Below the pieces are notes generated by a model, which saw only the letters and a program-made list of their open reading frames with translations, did no database searches and was not told the DNA's origin. The position numbers and the translations under genes are program-made. Below, piece after piece: positions 20,983 to 64,000 of a stretch of 64,000 nucleotides of DNA. The stretch's first letter is position 1, and each line of letters begins with the position of its first letter. This DNA comes from a virus (Duplodnaviria > Caudoviricetes). The stretch lies in IMG/VR virus record IMGVR_UViG_2974670102_000001, positions 198,654-262,653 of that record; one strand, given 5' to 3'.

Positions 20983-21299
20983 AGCTCAGTCCGCTACAGC
21001 GCAAGATTATGGTGCTGGTGCGTGACGCGTTTGTTACCTACTACAGCCACACCCAGCTTTTCATTTGTAACGAGGTGAAGACGGCCGCGCACGCGCTCAA
21101 TCGATCAGTGGACGATTCGTCCGTGAACGACTTGCTGTGGGCTATTCGTGAAGCACTCGGAGGCCGTAATACGCTGGGTGATTGGCTCATGTGGGAGTAT
21201 GACCCTGCTGTCTATCTGACGGGCACAGAGCGAAATCGTATCCTCAACCTGTGTCGAGAAGCTTGGCTCGACGCTATTCTCGAACGGGGTGAAATTTGA
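20979..21299 (+). CDS. C-W-RxxW paralog family member
   Basis: LFICNEV...NTLGDWL...CREAWLDAILERGEI. Confidence 0.8.
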   Translation: MKLSPLQRKIMVLVRDAFVTYYSHTQLFICNEVKTAAHALNRSVDDSSVNDLLWAIREALGGRNTLGDWLMWEYDPAVYLTGTERNRILNLCREAWLDAILERGEI

Positions 21300-21676
21300 A
21301 AGACGATGACGAGTACTTCAGCGCGAAAGAACTGGAAATCCTGAATCTGGTGCTGGAGCGGTTGGAACACGCGGCAGAGACCCCGGTGGATGGTGCCCAT
21401 CAGTACCTGTGCCTGCACATCGGCAGCGTCGGGCGCGAACTCAGCTACTCCAAAAAGCGCTATTTCTTCCATCGCCTATTCGGGCTCGACACCACGTACA
21501 CGAAGGCGGCGCAAGCCCTGATCGAACAGATCGCACAAGCACTCGACGGCAAGAGCGGCAACACGCTTCAGGGTTGGGTGAGTCTGCGCACTGGCTACAT
21601 ACCGTACGCAGATGTCATGAACGCGGCGCGTGATGCGTGGCTTCGTCGTGCACTCGAAATCGGGTATTTCGGATGA
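21296..21676 (+). CDS. C-W-RxxW paralog family member
   Basis: QYLCLHI...NTLQGWV...ARDAWLRRALEIGYF. Confidence 0.8.
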   Translation: MKDDDEYFSAKELEILNLVLERLEHAAETPVDGAHQYLCLHIGSVGRELSYSKKRYFFHRLFGLDTTYTKAAQALIEQIAQALDGKSGNTLQGWVSLRTGYIPYADVMNAARDAWLRRALEIGYFG

Positions 21677-22014
21677 GCACCGCACTGAATGCACGCCAGA
21701 TGGAGATCATGGTGTTTGTGTGCGCTGCCCTCAACTACCGTGATTCGGCCTATCCGCAGTACATCTGCCAAGCTGTGAAAGACGCGGCATGTGATCTGGA
21801 CGCCTGTGTCTGGTACGGGTTCTTGCGCCCATACCGCAGTCAGGTCAATTCGATCCTGCGCATGATCGATCAGGCATTGGATTGTCGGACGTTGGAGCGT
21901 TGGCTCGCGGGCAAGGTTTCGTTCAACGGGTTCCCGGCTGACCAGCTTGGACTTTTCAATCAATGTCGGGCCGGTTGGCTCGAAACCATAATCGCGCGAG
22001 GGCGCATCGAATGA
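21673..22014 (+). CDS. C-W-RxxW paralog family member
   Basis: QYICQAV...RTLERWL...CRAGWLETIIARGRI. Confidence 0.8.
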   Translation: MSTALNARQMEIMVFVCAALNYRDSAYPQYICQAVKDAACDLDACVWYGFLRPYRSQVNSILRMIDQALDCRTLERWLAGKVSFNGFPADQLGLFNQCRAGWLETIIARGRIE

Positions 22015-39337: not shown

Positions 39338-39682
39338 TTACCAGTTTTCGATCATCCAGTACACCCACGCCATCCGCGTCTTTCTGAGCAGCGGGTCGGC
39401 GTCGGTGGTCCGGATACGGTGCTGCCACCACAGCCACTCGTCCAGTCCGGAACAGCGGTCGAGTAACCGGGCGACACGGACGATCAGATTGTCGACCGCG
39501 TTGTTGATTTCTCGATCCGTGAACTCTTGGCGTAGGCCACCGGACGCCCGGTAGATGGCGCTGCACACACGGTCAGCCTGCCTGTCTTCGAGCCACATGT
39601 AGGCACGGCACAGGATACGGCGTTGCAAGTCCGTGATGCCAAGCTTTTCCGCGAACTCGATCTTTTGCTGTTCACCACGCAT
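39338..39682 (-). CDS. C-W-RxxW paralog, tandem array member
   Basis: RVCSAI...GLDEWL...TRMAWVYWMIENW. Confidence 0.85.
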   Translation of the reverse strand: MRGEQQKIEFAEKLGITDLQRRILCRAYMWLEDRQADRVCSAIYRASGGLRQEFTDREINNAVDNLIVRVARLLDRCSGLDEWLWWQHRIRTTDADPLLRKTRMAWVYWMIENW

Positions 39683-39996
39683 CACCAGTTCTCCAACATG
39701 AACTGAGTCCACGCGATCCGCGACTCCTGAACCCACTTGTGATTCTGCGAATAGGCTGGGTAGCCGCGCCGTGCCAGCCAGTCCGTGTATGAGATACAGC
39801 AGTCGATTTCGTTGTGGATGCGCCGCGACAAATCGCGCTCGGCCGCAAACAGGGCACGACGCTCGGACGATTTCGGCATCCGTTCCGCAATGATGTCATT
39901 GACTCCGTGCCCGATAGCGCCGCAGATGTACGTGTTGTTCCCGGCGCGCAGGTGGTGGAGAGCACGAACCAACAGTTCTCGATGCAACTCGTTCAT
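39682..39996 (-). CDS. C-W-RxxW paralog, tandem array member
   Basis: YICGAI...SYTDWL...SRIAWTQFMLENW. Confidence 0.85.
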   Translation of the reverse strand: MNELHRELLVRALHHLRAGNNTYICGAIGHGVNDIIAERMPKSSERRALFAAERDLSRRIHNEIDCCISYTDWLARRGYPAYSQNHKWVQESRIAWTQFMLENW

Positions 39997-40373
39997 ACCC
40001 AGTTCTCCAGCATGAAATCCATCCACGCGATGCGCGACTCACGCAGTTTCGCCGTGTCCTGATCATCGATGTGAACCTGACCGGTGTGATACAGCCACGC
40101 CGAATAGCTGCCAACCGGACTCAGGGCCGCGTGGATACGCGTGGTCAGCCGGTCTGTTGCCTCAGCCAGATACCGGAACTGATCGCGGCGTTCGCGCTCC
40201 GTGATCATGCCCGTCCGCTGCATTTGGCGGACACTGCGCATACATTCCTCACGTGCCTCGAACAGTGCAAAGCAGATCATGGAGTTACGGCCGTCGACCA
40301 TGCGATCACGTGCGACGCGTAGCACACAGCGTGCCGTGTATCGGATTTTTGCGTTGTTGAATTCTTCGGTCAT
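39993..40373 (-). CDS. C-W-RxxW paralog, tandem array member
   Basis: MICFAL...SYSAWL...SRIAWMDFMLENWV. Confidence 0.85.
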   Translation of the reverse strand: MTEEFNNAKIRYTARCVLRVARDRMVDGRNSMICFALFEAREECMRSVRQMQRTGMITERERRDQFRYLAEATDRLTTRIHAALSPVGSYSAWLYHTGQVHIDDQDTAKLRESRIAWMDFMLENWV

Positions 40374-40411
40374 ACCCAGTTCTCCAGCATGAAATCCATC
40401 CACGCGATGCG
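39993..40411. repeat. 42-bp perfect direct repeat at gene junctions (39993-40034 = 40370-40411; first 24 bp also at 40771-40794)
   Basis: TCATACCCAGTTCTCCAGCATGAAATCCATCCACGCGATGCG. Confidence 0.92.
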
Positions 40412-40774
40412 GGTGGCGCGTCGGGCCTCTACGCTACTGTGGCCCGTCCCGTACGGAATGCCGTGCCGCATTTGCAGCCACGAGTCTAAGGAACTTGCGC
40501 CCCCAAGCTCCTGACGAATGCGAGTCGCCAGTTTCTTGTGTGCGAGCCCGATGTATTCGAGCGCCGCAGCCCCATCTTCCACCGTGATCGTGTCCGCGTT
40601 CACCTTCTGCTCGACGATAGTGCTGTGTTCCTCAGCCACGTTTGCGAGGGCAAAACAAATCATGCTGCTCTGCTTTCGCACGATGCGGAGCCGCGCGCAC
40701 ACCAAGAGCAAACGTGCGTAGTTCTTAACGGCGTGAGCCTCTACAATATCGTCGACTTCTTGTGTTTCGCTCAT
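40370..40774 (-). CDS. C-W-RxxW paralog, tandem array member
   Basis: MICFAL...SLDSWL...TRIAWMDFMLENWV. Confidence 0.85.
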   Translation of the reverse strand: MSETQEVDDIVEAHAVKNYARLLLVCARLRIVRKQSSMICFALANVAEEHSTIVEQKVNADTITVEDGAAALEYIGLAHKKLATRIRQELGGASSLDSWLQMRHGIPYGTGHSSVEARRATRIAWMDFMLENWV

Positions 40775-41154
40775 ACCCAGTTCTCCAGCATGAAGTTGAT
40801 CCACGCTAAACGCGTGACCCGCAGCGGCTCCCGGAGTTCTCGGGCCTTGAGTCTGCGCGGCAGGCATCCCTTGTTCAGAATCCACGACGTAAGCGACGTG
40901 TAGCCCTGCAACTCGGTGATGATACGATGTTGCAGAGCATCACGGGCTGCGTTCATAACGTCGATCACGTGGTTGCACTCGGTGGCTGTCAGGCATCCGC
41001 GCAGTAGCGCGTCCTTGGCCGCCGACACGTGGTTGTCCTTTACGACCGAGATTGCGACACAGATGTACTGCGACCGGCCTTCCTCGAATCGTTCACGTGC
41101 ACCTTGCAACAGTGTCCGAGCCGCTGACCGAATTTCGTCATGCGTGGGCGTCAT
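40771..41154 (-). CDS. C-W-RxxW paralog, tandem array member
   Basis: YICVAI...SLTSWI...TRLAWINFMLENWV. Confidence 0.85.
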   Translation of the reverse strand: MTPTHDEIRSAARTLLQGARERFEEGRSQYICVAISVVKDNHVSAAKDALLRGCLTATECNHVIDVMNAARDALQHRIITELQGYTSLTSWILNKGCLPRRLKARELREPLRVTRLAWINFMLENWV

Positions 41155-41486
41155 GCGGCCTCCACCTGCTCGATCATCCACTGGACCCATACGATGCGGG
41201 TCTCGCGGATTCCCTTCAGGTCGTAGTACGGATCGTTGCTGTTACGCAGTTGCCGGGACGACCAGCCGTTGAGCGTAGTGTACGGGTAGATCAGGATATT
41301 GATCCACGCACCCAGATCACGCCGGGCACACACGAGATCGTTCAGCGTGTAGTTCTGGTTCGGGAGCAGGAGATTCAGGTACTTGTAGGCGCGATCCAGT
41401 GCGTTGCACAGGAACTCTTCATCCTTGTTGCGGATATAGCCCTTCGCCAATTGCAGCAGCCGGATTTTCAGCGCTTTGTGTTGCAT
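41151..41486 (-). CDS. C-W-RxxW paralog, tandem array member
   Basis: FLCNAL...TLNGWS...TRIVWVQWMIEQ. Confidence 0.85.
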   Translation of the reverse strand: MQHKALKIRLLQLAKGYIRNKDEEFLCNALDRAYKYLNLLLPNQNYTLNDLVCARRDLGAWINILIYPYTTLNGWSSRQLRNSNDPYYDLKGIRETRIVWVQWMIEQVEAA

Positions 41487-41500
41487 GGTCACCTCCAAAA

Positions 41501-41552
41501 GAAAACGAGTTGCAAGAATACAGCGCGGGCCGTACCTTGTCAACTCGTTTTC
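41501..41552 (-). promoter_or_regulatory. sigma70 promoter enclosed by a 12-bp inverted repeat
   Basis: TTGACA(41543-41538)-17-TATTCT; arms GAAAACGAGTTG/CAACTCGTTTTC. Confidence 0.8.
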
Positions 41553-41553
41553 A

Positions 41554-41868
41554 TCACTTCCAGTTATCCAGCATCCACTGAATCCACGCGATCCGCGTTT
41601 CTTGTGTGAGCGCTGCCGGAAGGTAGCGCTGGTTGTAGCCGGTTTCCTTCTCGATGTACGATTCCAGTGTCCACCGGAAACCCATCTGATCGCGCTCGGC
41701 ACCCATGGCCGCAGCCAGAATTCCATACACGTGCTCGCGCAGGTCCTCGGCGGTATCGACCATGTTGCGCTCACGCCCGATCTTGGAGATCAGGCAGCAC
41801 ACGAAGTCGTCACCACGCAGCAGCCGTCGCTGTACCTCTTCCAGAATCTGGCGGTATTCAGCCTTCAT
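41554..41868 (-). CDS. C-W-RxxW paralog, tandem array member
   Basis: FVCCLI...TLESYI...TRIAWIQWMLDNWK. Confidence 0.85.
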   Translation of the reverse strand: MKAEYRQILEEVQRRLLRGDDFVCCLISKIGRERNMVDTAEDLREHVYGILAAAMGAERDQMGFRWTLESYIEKETGYNQRYLPAALTQETRIAWIQWMLDNWK

Positions 41869-42094
41869 GCGGCTGCTCCGGGTGCTTGAGGCGACCACGC
41901 GGTTCTTCGTCGTTTTCCGCGCGCTCGACACCGACCGTGTAATTCGCAGTCGAGGCCGTTACGGTGGCCAGCACCGCAGTGAGTTCGACCGGCGTCAGCC
42001 CGTGCTTGGAGGCGAGGCCCTGCATGAACGTGTACAGTTCTGAGGTTGCGAGTGCGACACCCCAATGTCGCTCGTGAATCGGCATCAGTCCCAT
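41858..42094 (-). CDS. unrelated small protein inserted in the array
   Basis: TAATG overlap; lacks the family motifs. Confidence 0.6.
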   Translation of the reverse strand: MGLMPIHERHWGVALATSELYTFMQGLASKHGLTPVELTAVLATVTASTANYTVGVERAENDEEPRGRLKHPEQPHEG

Positions 42095-42402
42095 TATGCC
42101 CAGTTCTCCATCATGTAGGTGAGCCACTGGACACGCGTTTCCTTCATGTCACGCTTGTCCAGACGCTGGTGACCAGTGCACAGGCGCACGAAGTCGTCGA
42201 GGACAACCGGCTGATCTTCCGGGGTCCGTGTGCAGTTACGCAGAATCTGCGTCACGTGCGTGCGCAGCACCTCAGCCGCGTCCGGTGCGTTCAGGTGGTT
42301 GCCAGCGATACGGATTGCCGTACACACGAGCATCACACTGTCCGTCTCGATCAGATCGCGCGCCTTTTCCAGAATGCGGTAGTAGGTGTCACGCATCTGC
42401 AT
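42094..42402 (-). CDS. C-W-RxxW paralog, tandem array member
   Basis: LVCTAI...VLDDFV...TRVQWLTYMMENWA. Confidence 0.85.
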   Translation of the reverse strand: MQMRDTYYRILEKARDLIETDSVMLVCTAIRIAGNHLNAPDAAEVLRTHVTQILRNCTRTPEDQPVVLDDFVRLCTGHQRLDKRDMKETRVQWLTYMMENWA

Positions 42403-42853
42403 CTTTCCCCTTCTGCTCTTGTTCCTCGGCCGCGATGCGCGCCAATTCGCGGGTGAAATCGATATCCTGCTCCACCATCCACCGGGCCCAAATGGCACGC
42501 GTCTTCTGGAGGTCTTCGAACACAAGTCCCGCTGCCTCGTACCCGTGGACGCGGTGAAGCCATGCTTCGAGCGTGTCCCCATCACCCAGCACCTTACTGA
42601 TGTACCACACAATCTCGCTGGCTTCTGCGCTGATGGTGGTGCCCTCGATTTCCAGTGCGTTGAAGAACGAACCGGGACCATTCACCGTGTCACGCCCGGA
42701 CTGCTCGCGATTAATCTGGACAGCCGCAGCCTCGATTGCGTGGCATAGGAACGAGTGAACGTTCCCGCTATGCGAATTCTGGCCCGGGCCATTTTCGAGC
42801 ACCAGTTGCGCTGCACGCAGCAGAAGTTGCTTTTGGATTTCTTTCATTGTCAT
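42389..42853 (-). CDS. C-W-RxxW paralog, tandem array member
   Basis: FLCHAI...TLEAWL...TRAIWARWMVEQ. Confidence 0.85.
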   Translation of the reverse strand: MTMKEIQKQLLLRAAQLVLENGPGQNSHSGNVHSFLCHAIEAAAVQINREQSGRDTVNGPGSFFNALEIEGTTISAEASEIVWYISKVLGDGDTLEAWLHRVHGYEAAGLVFEDLQKTRAIWARWMVEQDIDFTRELARIAAEEQEQKGKDADA

Positions 42854-43206
42854 TCTCCCATCATGTGACGGAGCCACGCGAGGCGGCCAAGCTTTGTTAG
42901 TTCAGCGCACGCCGTGCCCGGGGTCAGCCCCATAGCGTCCTCGACCCAGCCTTCGTAGGTCATGAAGCCCTTGATTTGGGCCTGTACGAACTCCACTAGT
43001 TCGGCTGCTGCCTGAACGTATTCGCGCTGCTCCTTCGTTTCCAAGCGCCGCCCATGCAGGCCGTCGAAGTAGCCGGTGCTCAAGCCCGTCATGATGTTGC
43101 CAGCGCCCTCGATTGCGTGGCATAGGAAGTGGTGCTGATCGTAGCGCGCGGACTCGATCACCAGTTGGTGCGCGAGTGCCAGAATCTCGTATTTCTTGCT
43201 CTTCAT
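42850..43206 (-). CDS. C-W-RxxW paralog, tandem array member
   Basis: FLCHAI...TYEGWV...GRLAWLRHMMGE. Confidence 0.85.
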   Translation of the reverse strand: MKSKKYEILALAHQLVIESARYDQHHFLCHAIEGAGNIMTGLSTGYFDGLHGRRLETKEQREYVQAAAELVEFVQAQIKGFMTYEGWVEDAMGLTPGTACAELTKLGRLAWLRHMMGE

Positions 43207-43556
43207 TGCCAGTTGTTCTCCATCATCCACGTGATCCACGCAAGGCGCGTTGCCCGCATCTTCACTTGTTGTTCAGGGGCCGCCATGCTGGCCAGCGTCA
43301 GTTCCGGATGCCCGTTTTCGCGCAGCCACACTTCGAGCGTGTGAGCGCGTGAGCCATCCTTCAACTCCAGCAGGTTACCGATGTGGTAGTCGATATCCAA
43401 CTCTGCGATATGATACGCTTCTTGCTCTTGCGCCGTCAAATCAGCCGTGAGTTGGGTGACTGCCCACTGAACGGCGCTGCACACGAATTCCTCGTTGCGC
43501 GCCTGAATCAGGTCCCATGCGGCACGCAGGATTTCCCGGTGAATGTTCTTCTGCAT
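43203..43556 (-). CDS. C-W-RxxW paralog, tandem array member
   Basis: FVCSAV...TLEVWL...TRLAWITWMMENNW. Confidence 0.85.
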   Translation of the reverse strand: MQKNIHREILRAAWDLIQARNEEFVCSAVQWAVTQLTADLTAQEQEAYHIAELDIDYHIGNLLELKDGSRAHTLEVWLRENGHPELTLASMAAPEQQVKMRATRLAWITWMMENNWQ

Positions 43557-43933
43557 CACCAGTTCTCCAGCATGTGCCGTACCCACGCGATGCGAACTTC
43601 ACGCGTTCGCACGATGTGCTCGACTTTCGTCACCAGATCGTAGAGCGGAATGCCCAGCTTCTTTTCCAGATAGCTGTCGATGGTGCAGGAACCCGGAACC
43701 TCGCGGTCGAGAGCCGCGTTGATCGAGTTGTAGAGGGAGCGCGAGGCCACGCGCATTTCCTGCGAGCGCGCAGTCGGCCAACGCCACATGGCACGGTGGT
43801 TGACGGAATCGCCGCCCAGCGCGCTACCCGCGCTGGCCACATGGCCGCAGATCAGGGTTCGCTGGTCGACCGGTGTTGCGATAAGCCTTTCGAGTACCAC
43901 TTCGAGGATTTCACGTTCTTGCGATGTCAGCAT
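43556..43933 (-). CDS. C-W-RxxW paralog, tandem array member
   Basis: LICGHV...TIDSYL...VRIAWVRHMLENW. Confidence 0.85.
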   Translation of the reverse strand: MLTSQEREILEVVLERLIATPVDQRTLICGHVASAGSALGGDSVNHRAMWRWPTARSQEMRVASRSLYNSINAALDREVPGSCTIDSYLEKKLGIPLYDLVTKVEHIVRTREVRIAWVRHMLENW

Positions 43934-43936
43934 CCA

Positions 43937-44263
43937 TTAACTCCAGTTGTCGAGCATCCACGTGATCCACGCGATGCGGGTTTCTCTCAGTGCCTGCTCC
44001 TGCGCACGCTGCTCCGTGTACGACAGATTCCACGGATCGTTCCGGATATGGCCGTGCTTCACGAGCCACGTGTTGAGCGAATGGGAGCCCTCCAGCAGCG
44101 TCGCGATCCGGGCCTTGATGGATTCTGCGGCATGTTTAGCGACTGCCGTACCCTCGGCCTTCGCGTACCGGTCGACGGCGACGCAGATGTACGTGTACCG
44201 CTTGCACGCGATGTCGGCTCGCGCCCATAGTAGCAGGTCGATTTCCTTGCTAGTCAGCTTCAT
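43937..44263 (-). CDS. C-W-RxxW paralog, tandem array member
   Basis: YICVAV...SLNTWL...TRIAWITWMLDNWS. Confidence 0.85.
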   Translation of the reverse strand: MKLTSKEIDLLLWARADIACKRYTYICVAVDRYAKAEGTAVAKHAAESIKARIATLLEGSHSLNTWLVKHGHIRNDPWNLSYTEQRAQEQALRETRIAWITWMLDNWS

Positions 44264-44411
44264 GGCCAGCCACCTCCACGTGAGCCACGCATTTCAGGCC
44301 CGTAGTGTATTCGATGAATGCCGCGCACTCCCAGTGCTTTTCGGCCGCACGGTCTGCGGCACCTGCGAGCGCCGCGAGAAGCAGAATCGCACCCAGAACC
44401 ATCTGTTTCAT
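44250..44411 (-). CDS. small exported protein (not in ORF track)
   Basis: GGAGG RBS; MKQMVLGAILLLAALAGAA signal. Confidence 0.6.
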   Translation of the reverse strand: MKQMVLGAILLLAALAGAADRAAEKHWECAAFIEYTTGLKCVAHVEVAGHEAD

Positions 44412-61611: not shown

Positions 61612-61875
61612 TTAGCCTCGTCCCCGCGCACGTTGTTGTCGGATTGCACGTGCCTCTTTCTTGTTGGGCACATGCTCTCGGGTCGCCAACTCGGCCTTCA
61701 ACTGGGCCAGCGTGATGTAGCGCAGGCCGCCGTCAAACGGGTCGTAATACAGTTCCTCGTCCGGAATGTCGTAGCGGTTGTGGCCGGTACAGCGATAGAC
61801 GCCGACGCGCATCTTCATCAGAACACGCGTATGCTGCGTCTTCAGCCAAGCCACCGGGTCCCAGTTAGGCCACAT
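61612..61875 (-). CDS. hypothetical protein
   Basis: GGAGG RBS; ELATREHVPNK.E...IRQ. Confidence 0.7.
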   Translation of the reverse strand: MWPNWDPVAWLKTQHTRVLMKMRVGVYRCTGHNRYDIPDEELYYDPFDGGLRYITLAQLKAELATREHVPNKKEARAIRQQRARGRG

Positions 61876-62287
61876 GGTGATCCTCCCATTCGATGTAGCC
61901 GCGCTGGAGCATGGTCTTCACCCACCCCAGACGGCATTGGTTGGAGTGCCGGTCGAGGCGTTGGCACAATTCGCGATGTGCCTCGCGGTCAACGATACAC
62001 TCGTTCTCGTTACGTCCTGCCGTCGGTTTTCCGAACTGGTGATAGACCCACGAACACATGGTATGGCCGTTGCCCATAGCGTCGACGAGCGATTCCTCGA
62101 TCATGTCCGCCAACTCGATAGCCGCCTGATTCCGATACTCGCAGTCGGAGCGTCGCGCGATGTCTTCGATCGTGAGGCACAGGTATTCGTCGCCATGATC
62201 AACGACACCGGATTCCTCCAGTTTGTGAGCCACGAGTTCCAGAATCTGAATCTGGTCTTCGTTCAAGTAGCGTCGCTGCATCACCAT
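61865..62287 (-). CDS. C-W-RxxW paralog family member
   Basis: EYLCLTI...TMCSWV...CRLGWVKTMLQRGYI. Confidence 0.8.
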   Translation of the reverse strand: MVMQRRYLNEDQIQILELVAHKLEESGVVDHGDEYLCLTIEDIARRSDCEYRNQAAIELADMIEESLVDAMGNGHTMCSWVYHQFGKPTAGRNENECIVDREAHRELCQRLDRHSNQCRLGWVKTMLQRGYIEWEDHHVA

Positions 62288-62303
62288 CTTGACCTCCTAA
62301 TGT

Positions 62304-63026: not shown

Positions 63027-63539
63027 TTACCCGTGATTACATTCTTCGGGGATATCGTCCCCGTCCTCTACGTCAGTCATGAACGTCTCGACAGGTGCGT
63101 AGCCCTCCGGCTCGTCACACAGGAACAATTCGTCCTCGACTATGAGAATCGAGCCACCGACCGCCATCGAGACCTCGACTACGGGTTCCTGCGTACCTTC
63201 TACCGTGTGGTACTTGACAACACGGCCGAAGAACGTACGGGGCTCACATCGAACGGCAACCGGATCGCCCGTCGCAAACACGCAACCCGAAGCGGGCTCA
63301 GGGCGTGGGCCTACCGCAAATCGAGCGTGCGTCACGATCATACACGGGGCATTGGGCCCGACGCGCAGACTCGGAAAGTAGCCAGCGTCCTGCGGGAACA
63401 CGAGAAGCACGTTGTGGCTCTCAGCACCAAACGGATTCACCTTCATCCATACGGCACCGTGCAACGTGAACAATTGACCCACGTCCACGGTCGAGAACTT
63501 CACGCGCTTTCCGCTGTTGTAGCAGATACTGCCCTTCAT
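63027..63539 (-). CDS. hypothetical protein with KOW-like domain
   Basis: GGAGG RBS; FATGDPVAV..FFGRVV. Confidence 0.65.
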   Translation of the reverse strand: MKGSICYNSGKRVKFSTVDVGQLFTLHGAVWMKVNPFGAESHNVLLVFPQDAGYFPSLRVGPNAPCMIVTHARFAVGPRPEPASGCVFATGDPVAVRCEPRTFFGRVVKYHTVEGTQEPVVEVSMAVGGSILIVEDELFLCDEPEGYAPVETFMTDVEDGDDIPEECNHG

Positions 63540-63973
63540 ACGGCCTCCCGCTCCCAATCGCCCGCTGCGTCGACCACATCGATCTCGATGTGGCCGCGAA
63601 CCAGCATCGTTTCCACCCAACCAAGACGCGCCTGATTCGAATGCTTCATCCACAGGTCGTGGGCCCGCACCCGCTCTTCGCGAGTCCCGAACGACACTAC
63701 GTCGGGGCTGAGCGGTCGCGGAATGTAGTTGGCGTACGCCATCTGCGGATTCAGCCAGTTCGAGAACGTCGTGTTGTGGCCGTAGGACACGAGACTGCGC
63801 TCGATTGCTTCGATCAGCCGGTATCCCGCATCCTCGTATGCGTTACCGAGCGCACGCAACGCGTCCTGAATCAGGTTGCATAGGTACTCGGAATACACCT
63901 CGTTTTCACCTGTCTCGATCAGGATGCCGCGCACCCACAACAGGATTTTGATCTGCTTTCCGTCAAGCACCAC
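63536..63973 (-). CDS. C-W-RxxW paralog family member (true start may lie beyond the window)
   Basis: EYLCNLI...TFSNWL...ARLGWVETMLVRGHI. Confidence 0.8.
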   Translation of the reverse strand: MVLDGKQIKILLWVRGILIETGENEVYSEYLCNLIQDALRALGNAYEDAGYRLIEAIERSLVSYGHNTTFSNWLNPQMAYANYIPRPLSPDVVSFGTREERVRAHDLWMKHSNQARLGWVETMLVRGHIEIDVVDAAGDWEREAV

Positions 63974-64000
63974 GCGTTCGGACGCGGGCGCGGTTTTTCT

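Follow-up and report, generated by a model that had tools for sequence, protein, structure and literature searches.

A tandem array of phrog_8421 paralogs in a Burkholderia jumbo phage carries Shine-Dalgarno-like sites of following genes in C-terminal codons

In large phages, small accessory genes have often been expanded into tandem rows of paralogs, and in the gene accordion of poxviruses (K3L) near-identical gene copies vary in number between close isolates. For overlapping neighboring genes, coupling by termination-reinitiation at ATGA or TGATG with an intragenic Shine-Dalgarno (SD) sequence has been described (Huber et al., 2019, PMC6728339; reviewed in PMC12548453). The locus presented here resembles each of these in part. 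It lies on the minus strand at positions 39338–44263 of the window, the whole stretch of 64 kb that was analyzed and the final part of a 262,653-bp virus record, and consists of 13 paralogs of the family phrog_8421 and one unrelated gene. Like known coupled pairs, the array exhibits −4 and −1 overlaps together with an SD in the upstream 3′ coding region at working distance, and the pressure on its codon choice is of the kind predicted by dual coding. Unlike in these pairs, the SD is located in a motif of a paralog family and recurs up to seven times, and the coupling is here predicted from the sequence. As in other large-phage expansions, many diverged copies stand in a row on one strand; other sampled phages with this family, however, carry only one or two copies, as compared to 13 adjacent ones here and 18 in the genome, every one of which is found within the window. 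The one-strand row of short genes with recurring sequence between them also has a superficial likeness to integron cassette arrays. Yet, no attC-like hairpin was found in eight folded junctions, the recurring sequence is a coding tail, the paralogs belong to a single family, the gene order is fixed between two relatives and no integrase is invoked. As in the gene accordion, a single viral gene stands in tandem copies, but these copies are only 15–38% identical in amino acid sequence, in line with the very divergent gene bodies reported in the initial annotation, and the two sequenced species do not differ in copy number.

Members of phrog_8421 are helical proteins of approximately 100 aa. The family profile was matched by all nine array paralogs that were scanned, over approximately 95 of 112 positions (E 4e-4 to 8e-11), and a profile built from 123 family members was matched by all 13. 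An AF2 model of the paralog g13 is all-helical (pLDDT 96.5), and no convincing match to this type of fold was found in the PDB (Foldseek E>1; VIA Z<=6). Searches of Pfam and NCBIfam gave no match for the family, BFVD yielded uncharacterised phage proteins only, with a BcepSauron protein being 100% identical to g13, and searches of the ESM Atlas and a wide VIA-align search returned nothing usable on family function. The family comprises 1,499 representatives, in which the helix R-x-A-W-I-D-W-M-[IL] is the best-conserved part. E is the most frequent residue after this helix (42 of 136 representatives), and an ENW-stop ending is uncommon (2 of 136). A search with a degenerate DNA pattern for A-W-I-D-W-M found the family as a single copy in 30 viral loci and in four whole records, one of them a 243-kb phage, and as two copies in eight loci.

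The gene models of the array are backed by exact protein look-ups. In 12 of the 13 successive gene pairs the gap is at most 3 nt, overlaps included. Five pairs overlap by ATGA (−4; g3>g4, g9>g10, g10>g11, g11>g12 and g12>g13), three overlap by TGATG or TAATG (−1; g2>g3, g6>g7x and g13>g14), and g1>g2 and g4>g5 are separated by 2–3 nt. The features are as follows, in their order along the minus strand and with the second family cluster of the window at the end:

43937–44263, minus strand: g1, paralog of 108 aa; tail M-L-D-N-W-S, in which TGG-AGT gives GGAG 7 nt 5′ of the g2 ATG
43556–43933, minus strand: g2, paralog of 125 aa; tail M-L-E-N-W, in which CTG-GAG gives GGAG (43565–43568) 8 nt 5′ of the g3 ATG; TGATG overlap with g3
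43203–43556, minus strand: g3, paralog of 117 aa; tail M-M-E-N-N-W-Q with GGAG at 43218–43221, 11 nt 5′ of the g4 ATG; ATGA overlap with g4
42850–43206, minus strand: g4, paralog of 118 aa; tail M-M-G-E, in which the rare Gly codon GGA followed by GAA gives GGGAG
42389–42853, minus strand: g5, paralog of 152 or 154 aa with a long acidic C-terminal extension; start ambiguous (the ATG at 42853 overlaps the g4 stop, the ATG at 42847 has the better SD spacing); merely AAGGGG in the tail 5′ of g6
42094–42402, minus strand: g6, paralog of 100 or 102 aa; tail M-M-E-N-W-A with GGAG (42106–42109) 11 nt 5′ of the g7x ATG; TAATG overlap with g7x
41858–42094, minus strand: g7x, unrelated gene of 78 aa with a weak phrog_14002 match; CCG-GAG in its tail gives GGAG 7 nt 5′ of g8, with which it overlaps by 11 nt
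41554–41868, minus strand: g8, paralog of 104 aa; tail M-L-D-N-W-K with CTG-GAT, without SD
41487–41553, minus strand: the sole gap of the array, 67 nt, between g8 and g9
41151–41486, minus strand: g9, paralog of 111 aa; tail M-I-E-Q-V-E-A-A, in which GTG-GAG-GCC gives GGAGG 4–5 nt 5′ of g10; ATGA overlap with g10
40771–41154, minus strand: g10, paralog of 127 aa; tail F-M-L-E-N-W-V
40370–40774, minus strand: g11, paralog of 134 aa; 42-bp junction repeat at 40370–40411
39993–40373, minus strand: g12, paralog of 126 aa; 42-bp junction repeat at 39993–40034
39682–39996, minus strand: g13, paralog of 104 aa; tail F-M-L-E-N-W, in which TTG-GAG gives GGAG at 39691–39694, 8 nt 5′ of g14; TGATG overlap with g14
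39338–39682, minus strand: g14, last paralog, 114 aa; tail M-I-E-N-W, spelled ATC-GAA-AAC-TGG-TAA, without SD
21009–22014, plus strand: second cluster, three distant paralogs with tails of the RGxI type

The gap behind g8 contains a promoter-like site (TTGACA-17-TATTCT at 41543–41515) flanked by a perfect 12-bp inverted repeat (41552–41541 / 41512–41501), which is followed by a T-run and a free-standing GGAGG serving g9. The array probably forms two polycistronic units, g1–g8 and g9–g14. Past g14 follows an unrelated gene with its own GGAGAG after the g14 TAA.

At seven junctions the [L/M]-E-N-W tail is spelled xxG-GAG-AAC-TGG, with the GGAG being positioned 8–11 nt 5′ of the next ATG, and at four further junctions GGAG arises from other codons, among them TGG-AGT in g1, GGA-GAA in g4 and GTG-GAG-G in g9. 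In total, 11 of the 12 close junctions carry GGAG 5–11 nt 5′ of the next ATG. The sequence CCAGTTCTCC (reverse complement of GGAGAACTGG) occurs six times in the window (39685, 39999, 40376, 40777, 42100 and 43559), as compared to 0.04 copies expected from shuffles, and a variant, GGAGAACAACTGG, is found at 43203–43221. Every junction listed in the initial annotation is present. Its idea that conserved C-terminal codons of each gene double as ribosome-binding site and start of the next one holds for the dual use, although the SD is built from [L/M]-E-N-W in just seven of the 13 paralogs; the distance to the next ATG, proposed to be approximately 8 nt, is 8–11 nt at these junctions. That the unrelated gene g7x uses an array junction as its ribosome-binding site agrees with its start 11 nt past the g6 GGAG. 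An SD core was present at 11 of 12 junctions as compared to 4.5 expected, a count reached in none of 20,000 synonymous shuffles. In a stricter test, in which the trio g10–g12 was collapsed into one and avoided restriction sites were barred, 9 of 10 junctions had the core as compared to 4.07 expected (P=0.00085). The tails of g8 (GAT) and g14 (ATC-GAA) are not needed as SD and encode none, and in the second cluster L-E is spelled CTC-GAA both times, too distant from the next start for an SD role. Rare codons sit exactly where a signal results, namely GGA (9% of Gly), AGT (9% of Ser) and GTA (11% of Val). These data support a bias of synonymous codon choice toward keeping the SD. Placing the SD in the tail of the upstream gene is a general habit and not specific for the array, as approximately 43% of some 74 overlapping or near-overlapping pairs elsewhere in the genome (rough own gene call) show an SD core within the first gene of the pair, and where unrelated viral contigs carry two adjacent copies of the family, the SD again lies in the tail of the upstream one.

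At identical residues the same codon is used in 71% of cases in the tail (45% expected) and in 43% in the gene bodies (39% expected). This excess of synonymous conservation in the tail argues against protein constraint as the entire explanation for the likeness of the junctions. The segments 39993–40034 and 40370–40411 are identical over 42 bp, and 40771–40794 shares 24 bp with both, just as initially described. As this perfect identity among g10, g11 and g12 exceeds what the constraints demand, a further cause is needed, which is most likely a short gene-conversion tract among these neighbors. A separate observation concerns the Ala codon before Trp, for which all 10 copies use GCG, as compared to 59% before TGG elsewhere in the genome (P~0.005); part of the synonymous excess, this GCG-TGG conservation, hence goes beyond SD and start. 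Gene conversion was rejected as its cause, as the flanking codons vary. A codon preference shared by all phages was rejected too, the counts at this place in other phages being GCA (28), GCG (22), GCC (18) and GCT (8).

For comparison with relatives, DNA of a close relative was sought by megablast, by tblastn against a phage collection and by scans of viral contigs and metagenomes, and none was found in these sources. The comparison with the sister phage BcepSaruman (93% ANI) hence rests on proteins and gene numbers. All 14 array genes have 1:1 orthologues in this one relative, and the numbering of gp389 (g13), gp392 (g10), gp397 (g5) and gp398 (g4) fits the same order and count. In a third relative g13 apparently still adjoins g14, the longest contig given for variants of both being 1,461 bp. 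The differences between orthologues are located within gene bodies (g4, g5 and g10), without whole-gene swaps. These three genes diverge far faster between the sister phages than their neighbors, with g4 and gp398 being only 73% and g10 and gp392 86% identical. BcepSaruman g12 ends in L instead of V, and as a terminal L still needs NTA before TGA, the ATGA overlap is kept.

The sequences of the 13 paralogs are compatible with one origin. In a tree made with the tails removed, a single origin was not rejected (p-AU 0.815, in a test on 88 columns that has low power), and the tree grouping the 13 genes had a log-likelihood 55 units above that of the free quick tree. Only two of 142 branches were well supported. 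The nearest paralogs adjoin each other (g10-g11-g12, and g6-g8). In BLAST searches several array paralogs scored best, with low scores, against members outside the array, which hints at multiple independent acquisition; the AU test, at its low power, did not support this. Pairwise identity reaches at most 38% and synonymous sites of the bodies are saturated, so that a recent junction-to-junction duplication is not visible.

It is probable that the array is a lineage-specific tandem expansion of a small helical family in which each duplicate inherited an ordinary coupling junction. The ancestral gene would have ended in W-M-L-E-N-W-stop, with its xxG-GAG codons being the SD of the following gene, and each tandem duplicate would have taken along the gene plus this junction. 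Thereafter, three overlapping constraints would have held the tail, namely the protein helix (R-x-A-W-x-x-x-M), the SD (a codon ending in G, then GAG) and the overlapped start (NTA-TGA or TGG-TGA-TG). They would suffice to preserve the likeness of the tails during the divergence of the bodies. Translation would proceed by stop/start coupling at the ATGA, TGATG and TAATG overlaps, through termination-reinitiation, SD-guided initiation or both; the geometry of the junctions points to such coupling in vivo.

Two other accounts of the tails deserve weighing. The tail might be kept for protein reasons only, with GGAG being a by-product of the usual spelling of L/M-E at 58% GC and the downstream genes being translated independently. 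The strong conservation of the helix and the frequency of E behind it fit this account, as do the preference for GAG in front of AAC in the rest of the genome (66 vs. 29) and the complete avoidance of CTCGAG, which bars CTC-GAG. It is nevertheless improbable, as the enrichment in the stricter test persists with codon usage and barred sites allowed for, as junctions without an E-N-W tail reach GGAG via other, partly rare, codons, as GGAG is absent from tails with no overlapping start after them, and as the scarcity of ENW-stop in the family argues against a general protein requirement. The initial annotation had instead regarded the junction repeats as recombination sites of self-coupling cassettes, at which whole genes could be gained, lost or rearranged without harm to translation, in the manner of an integrase-free cassette array. 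With such in-register sites the array would behave as a cassette array or a gene accordion. In favor of this are the 42-bp perfect direct repeats 377 bp apart with the 24-bp copy 401 bp beyond, the synonymous excess in the tail, the outside best scores of several paralogs, the position of g7x exactly at a junction inside the best-matching pair g6/g8, where it uses the g6 SD, and a g4-g5 block, divergent between the two phages, that begins 18 codons past g3|g4 and stops within a few codons of g5|g6.

Against such shuffling stand the 14 genes of BcepSaruman, unchanged in count and order and with differences inside gene bodies, and the apparent retention of g13-g14 in the third relative. Moreover, no gene pair is recent, a single origin is not rejected, and more than approximately 20 nt are common to just three junctions, most junctions being too unlike for good homologous substrates. 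The family is mostly single-copy elsewhere, and no hairpin or site-like structure is present at the junctions: RNA folding of eight of them gave Z-scores of −1.9 to +0.5 and no common structure, so that a conserved RNA fold was rejected both as a mask of the SD and as a site for recombination. Shuffling is thus not supported by the sequences compared, those of one relative at the protein level, and seems very unlikely; rare variants in populations are possible. A milder form is junction exchange, in which the 24–42-bp repeats would undergo gene conversion and, rarely, unequal crossover, keeping the tails uniform and yielding in-frame, still-coupled variants with one paralog more or less in populations. 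This, too, is unlikely. If true, pressure from the host could make the array grow, shrink or exchange alleles, and traces of this would be seen in the unusually divergent alleles of g4-g5 and g10.

With tandem expansion of coupled genes as the preferred reading, a new mechanism of gene mobility is not indicated, and the coupling mechanism is already known. The array offers a clean natural example of 15–20 nucleotides with three layers of information: they encode a conserved protein helix, provide the downstream gene with its ribosome-binding site and take in its overlapped start codon. The dual-use sequence recurs at seven junctions and appears to have been duplicated along with each gene. This is of use for the annotation of starts in this phage group, and it advises caution in reading synonymous conservation. 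Of more interest is what the family does, with its approximately 1,500 diverged representatives and the 18 copies kept in this phage lineage, some of them fast-evolving.

On the minus strand, 14 tightly packed genes run from 44263 to 39338. Thirteen of them (g1-g6 and g8-g14, in transcription order) are paralogs of 100-154 aa, which are strongly diverged (pairwise identity 15-38%) and in which one Leu, one Cys and the Arg, Trp and Met of a C-terminal helix R-x-x-W-x-x-x-M are invariant. All nine array paralogs scanned matched phrog_8421, a family of unknown function, and searches against Pfam and NCBIfam gave no match for any of the array paralogs. A profile search added five further members within the window and none in the remainder of the genome, 18 in total. 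Besides the paralogs, the following features are relevant:

41858-42094, minus strand: g7x, a gene between g6 and g8 that is unrelated to the 13 paralogs
41487-41553, minus strand: the only gap in the array, between g8 and g9, with a promoter-like site (TTGACA-17-TATTCT)
21009-22014, plus strand: three distant family members in tandem (mini-array), from the profile search
61865-62296, minus strand: distant family member, from the profile search
63536-64000, minus strand: distant family member, truncated by the record end, from the profile search

The five distant members differ in their C-terminal tail ([IL]-x-R-G-x-I...). Just upstream of the array, there is an ORF of 53 aa (44250-44411, minus strand) whose N-terminus is hydrophobic and resembles a signal peptide. 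It shares 14 nt with the start of g1 and provides the GGAGG of g1, so that the coupled chain may start upstream of the array.

The AlphaFold model of a family protein consists of six helices (pLDDT 96.5). Among solved structures no convincing relative of this model was found (Foldseek E>1; VIA Z<=6, a background value for helical proteins), and its matches in BFVD were only uncharacterised proteins of Burkholderia, Xanthomonas, Pseudomonas, Delftia and Acidovorax phages. For g13 (39682-39996), BFVD contains a 100% identical BcepSauron protein. The name "Histidine kinase", which g13 carries in BFVD/UniProt, is unsupported by Pfam, NCBIfam and fold searches, as are "Helix-turn-helix Cro subunit" and "DNA helicase" on BcepSauron proteins of the same small helical fold; such names look like mis-annotations.

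The junction repeats reported in the initial annotation do exist. GGAGAACTGG occurs in six copies at the junctions where it had been placed, versus 0.04 expected, and the variant GGAGAACAACTGG sits at the g3/g4 junction. A 42-bp stretch is present in identical form at 39993-40034 and, 377 bp away, at 40370-40411, and 24 bp of it recur at 40771-40794. At 12 of the 13 successive junctions the gap is at most 3 nt (five ATGA overlaps, three TGATG/TAATG, two longer overlaps and two gaps of 2-3 nt), and 11 of these 12 close junctions have GGAG 5-11 nt upstream of the next ATG. The proposal that the tail codons of each array gene double as the Shine-Dalgarno (SD) site of the next gene was thus borne out in placement, but the conserved [L/M]-E-N-W is the source of GGAG at only seven junctions. 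Elsewhere GGAG arises from other codons (g1, TGG-AGT; g4, GGA-GAA; g9, GTG-GAG-G; the unrelated g7x, CCG-GAG). No SD is present in the tails of the two paralogs that lack an overlapping start downstream: g8 ends in CTG-GAT, followed by a 67-nt gap with the promoter-like site and a free GGAGG, and g14 ends in ATC-GAA-AAC-TGG-TAA, followed by a separate GGAGAG. In the mini-array the L-E pair is too distant from the next start and is encoded by CTC-GAA in both cases. RNA folding of eight junctions yielded no common structure, and none was unusually stable. The promoter-like site between g8 and g9 is flanked by a perfect 12-bp inverted repeat, GAAAACGAGTTG / CAACTCGTTTTC (41552-41541, 41512-41501), which is followed by a T-run; judged by these motifs, the gap may hold a terminator of g1-g8 overlapping a promoter of g9-g14.

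The synonymous-site tests used codon frequencies estimated from a rough genome-wide gene call, in which GAA and GAG are about equally frequent. When the seven 3'-terminal codons of every upstream gene were shuffled synonymously (20,000 trials), the SD core was present at a mean of 4.5 of the 12 junctions, and 11 were reached in none of the trials. With the near-identical g10-g12 junctions counted once and sequences wholly avoided by the genome barred, the SD core was observed at nine of ten junctions versus 4.07 expected (P=0.00085). Rare codons stand exactly where the signal arises (GGA 9%, AGT 9% and, where it forms the ATGA overlap, GTA 11%). A further test compared codon use at residues identical between paralogs, the tail being defined as the invariant Arg onward. 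In gene bodies the same codon was used at 43% of identical residues versus 39% expected, which means that synonymous sites there are saturated, while in the tail the value was 71% versus 45% expected (with next-base context). The tails therefore show an excess of synonymous conservation above protein constraint. It remains when g11 and g12 are left out and the SD and start columns excluded (64% versus 44%), and is mainly owing to three residues:

Glu in the tail: GAG in 9 of 10 copies
Asn in the tail: AAC in 10 of 10 copies
Ala in the tail: GCG in 10 of 10 copies

The Ala signal results in part from the genome wholly avoiding GCC before TGG, as CCWGG is almost absent; the GCG excess beyond this avoidance has P ~0.005. 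Restriction-site avoidance is extreme genome-wide (CCWGG, 3 versus ~545 expected; AGATCT, AGGCCT, CCGCGG, CTCGAG, CTGCAG, GGATCC, GGCGCC and GGTACC, 0 each versus 30-104 expected each; GCCGGC and CAGCTG, one occurrence each) and has shaped codon choice, CTC-GAG being likewise absent.

The initial annotation had further proposed that recombination between junctions adds, deletes or shuffles whole genes. A comparison, at the level of proteins and gene numbers, with BcepSaruman (263,735 bp, 93% ANI), the sister of the Burkholderia jumbo phage BcepSauron (Matilda preprint), lends no support to this idea. Exact protein look-ups gave a BcepSaruman orthologue for all 14 genes, among them gp389 (g13), gp392 (g10), gp397 (g5) and gp398 (g4), and these numbers are spaced as expected for equal gene number and order. 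Identity is 96-100% in 11 genes, 92% in g5, 86% in g10 and 73% in g4. The differences lie within gene bodies, and all family tails are unchanged but for the last residue of g12, which is Val in the array phage and Leu in BcepSaruman; as both require an NTA codon, ATGA is kept. In g4 (42850-43206), g10 (40771-41154) and g5 (42389-42853) the changes are concentrated in the central part and the C-terminal half of the gene body, which could be due to diversifying selection or imported alleles. In a third relative, represented by Logan contigs only, the variants of g13 and g14 both list a longest contig of 1,461 bp, and g13 appears to adjoin g14 there as well. The 42-bp identity of g11 and g12 extends over variable residues (M-D-F) and a minority codon (GAT), and outside this tract the two genes share 33-57% nucleotide identity. 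This is most likely due to a short gene-conversion tract, although three of the codons are already fixed by the SD and start constraints. A similar tract of 22 nt (F-L-C-H-A-I-E, including a rare CTA codon) lies within the bodies of g4 and g5; such tracts are thus not junction-specific. The data at hand give no support to junctions as cassette recombination sites.

An old tandem expansion, with gene and coupling junction passed on as a unit to every copy, is the simplest reading. The closest paralogs are neighbours (g10-g11-g12, and g6-g8, which flank the inserted g7x). Several array paralogs have their best BLAST score with family members outside the array, and a quick family tree was poorly resolved. 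With tails removed, a tree keeping the 13 genes together scored 55 log-likelihood units above the quick free tree, and a single origin was not rejected by the AU test (p-AU 0.815).

The family comprises 1,499 representatives at E<=1e-3. Elsewhere, 30 viral loci, five Burkholderia phages and four whole records (among them a 243-kb phage) have a single copy, and eight loci have two adjacent copies. The single copies of Bcep176 and BcepIL02 lie amid small hypothetical genes, close to methyltransferase and nuclease genes. A natural fusion of two family domains (243 aa; proteins P0025/P0168, outside the window) on ~240-kb contigs from ENA and Logan indicates that tandem copies fused in another large phage. 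The ending ENW-stop is uncommon outside the array (two of 136 representatives), and as both proteins list a longest contig of 1,078 bp from the same source (JGI/IMG), they are probably neighbours on one contig.

The junction arrangement is not special within the genome or the family. The rough gene call contains 86 overlapping or near-overlapping pairs genome-wide, with the SD core within the upstream gene in half of them and, outside the array, in about 43%. Unrelated viral contigs with two-copy family arrays also carry the SD in the upstream tail (ATG-GAG-TGA, AAG-GAG-GAA, GAG-GCT). Coupling of overlapping genes with an SD inside the upstream gene is exactly as described by Huber et al. (PMC6728339). 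To judge from the sequence, the array uses a well-known mechanism, translational coupling of overlapping genes, which here is embedded in a motif of the family and was multiplied through tandem duplication. That g4, g5 and g10 diverge fast between the sister phages would fit, as a conjecture, an accessory role in host interaction.
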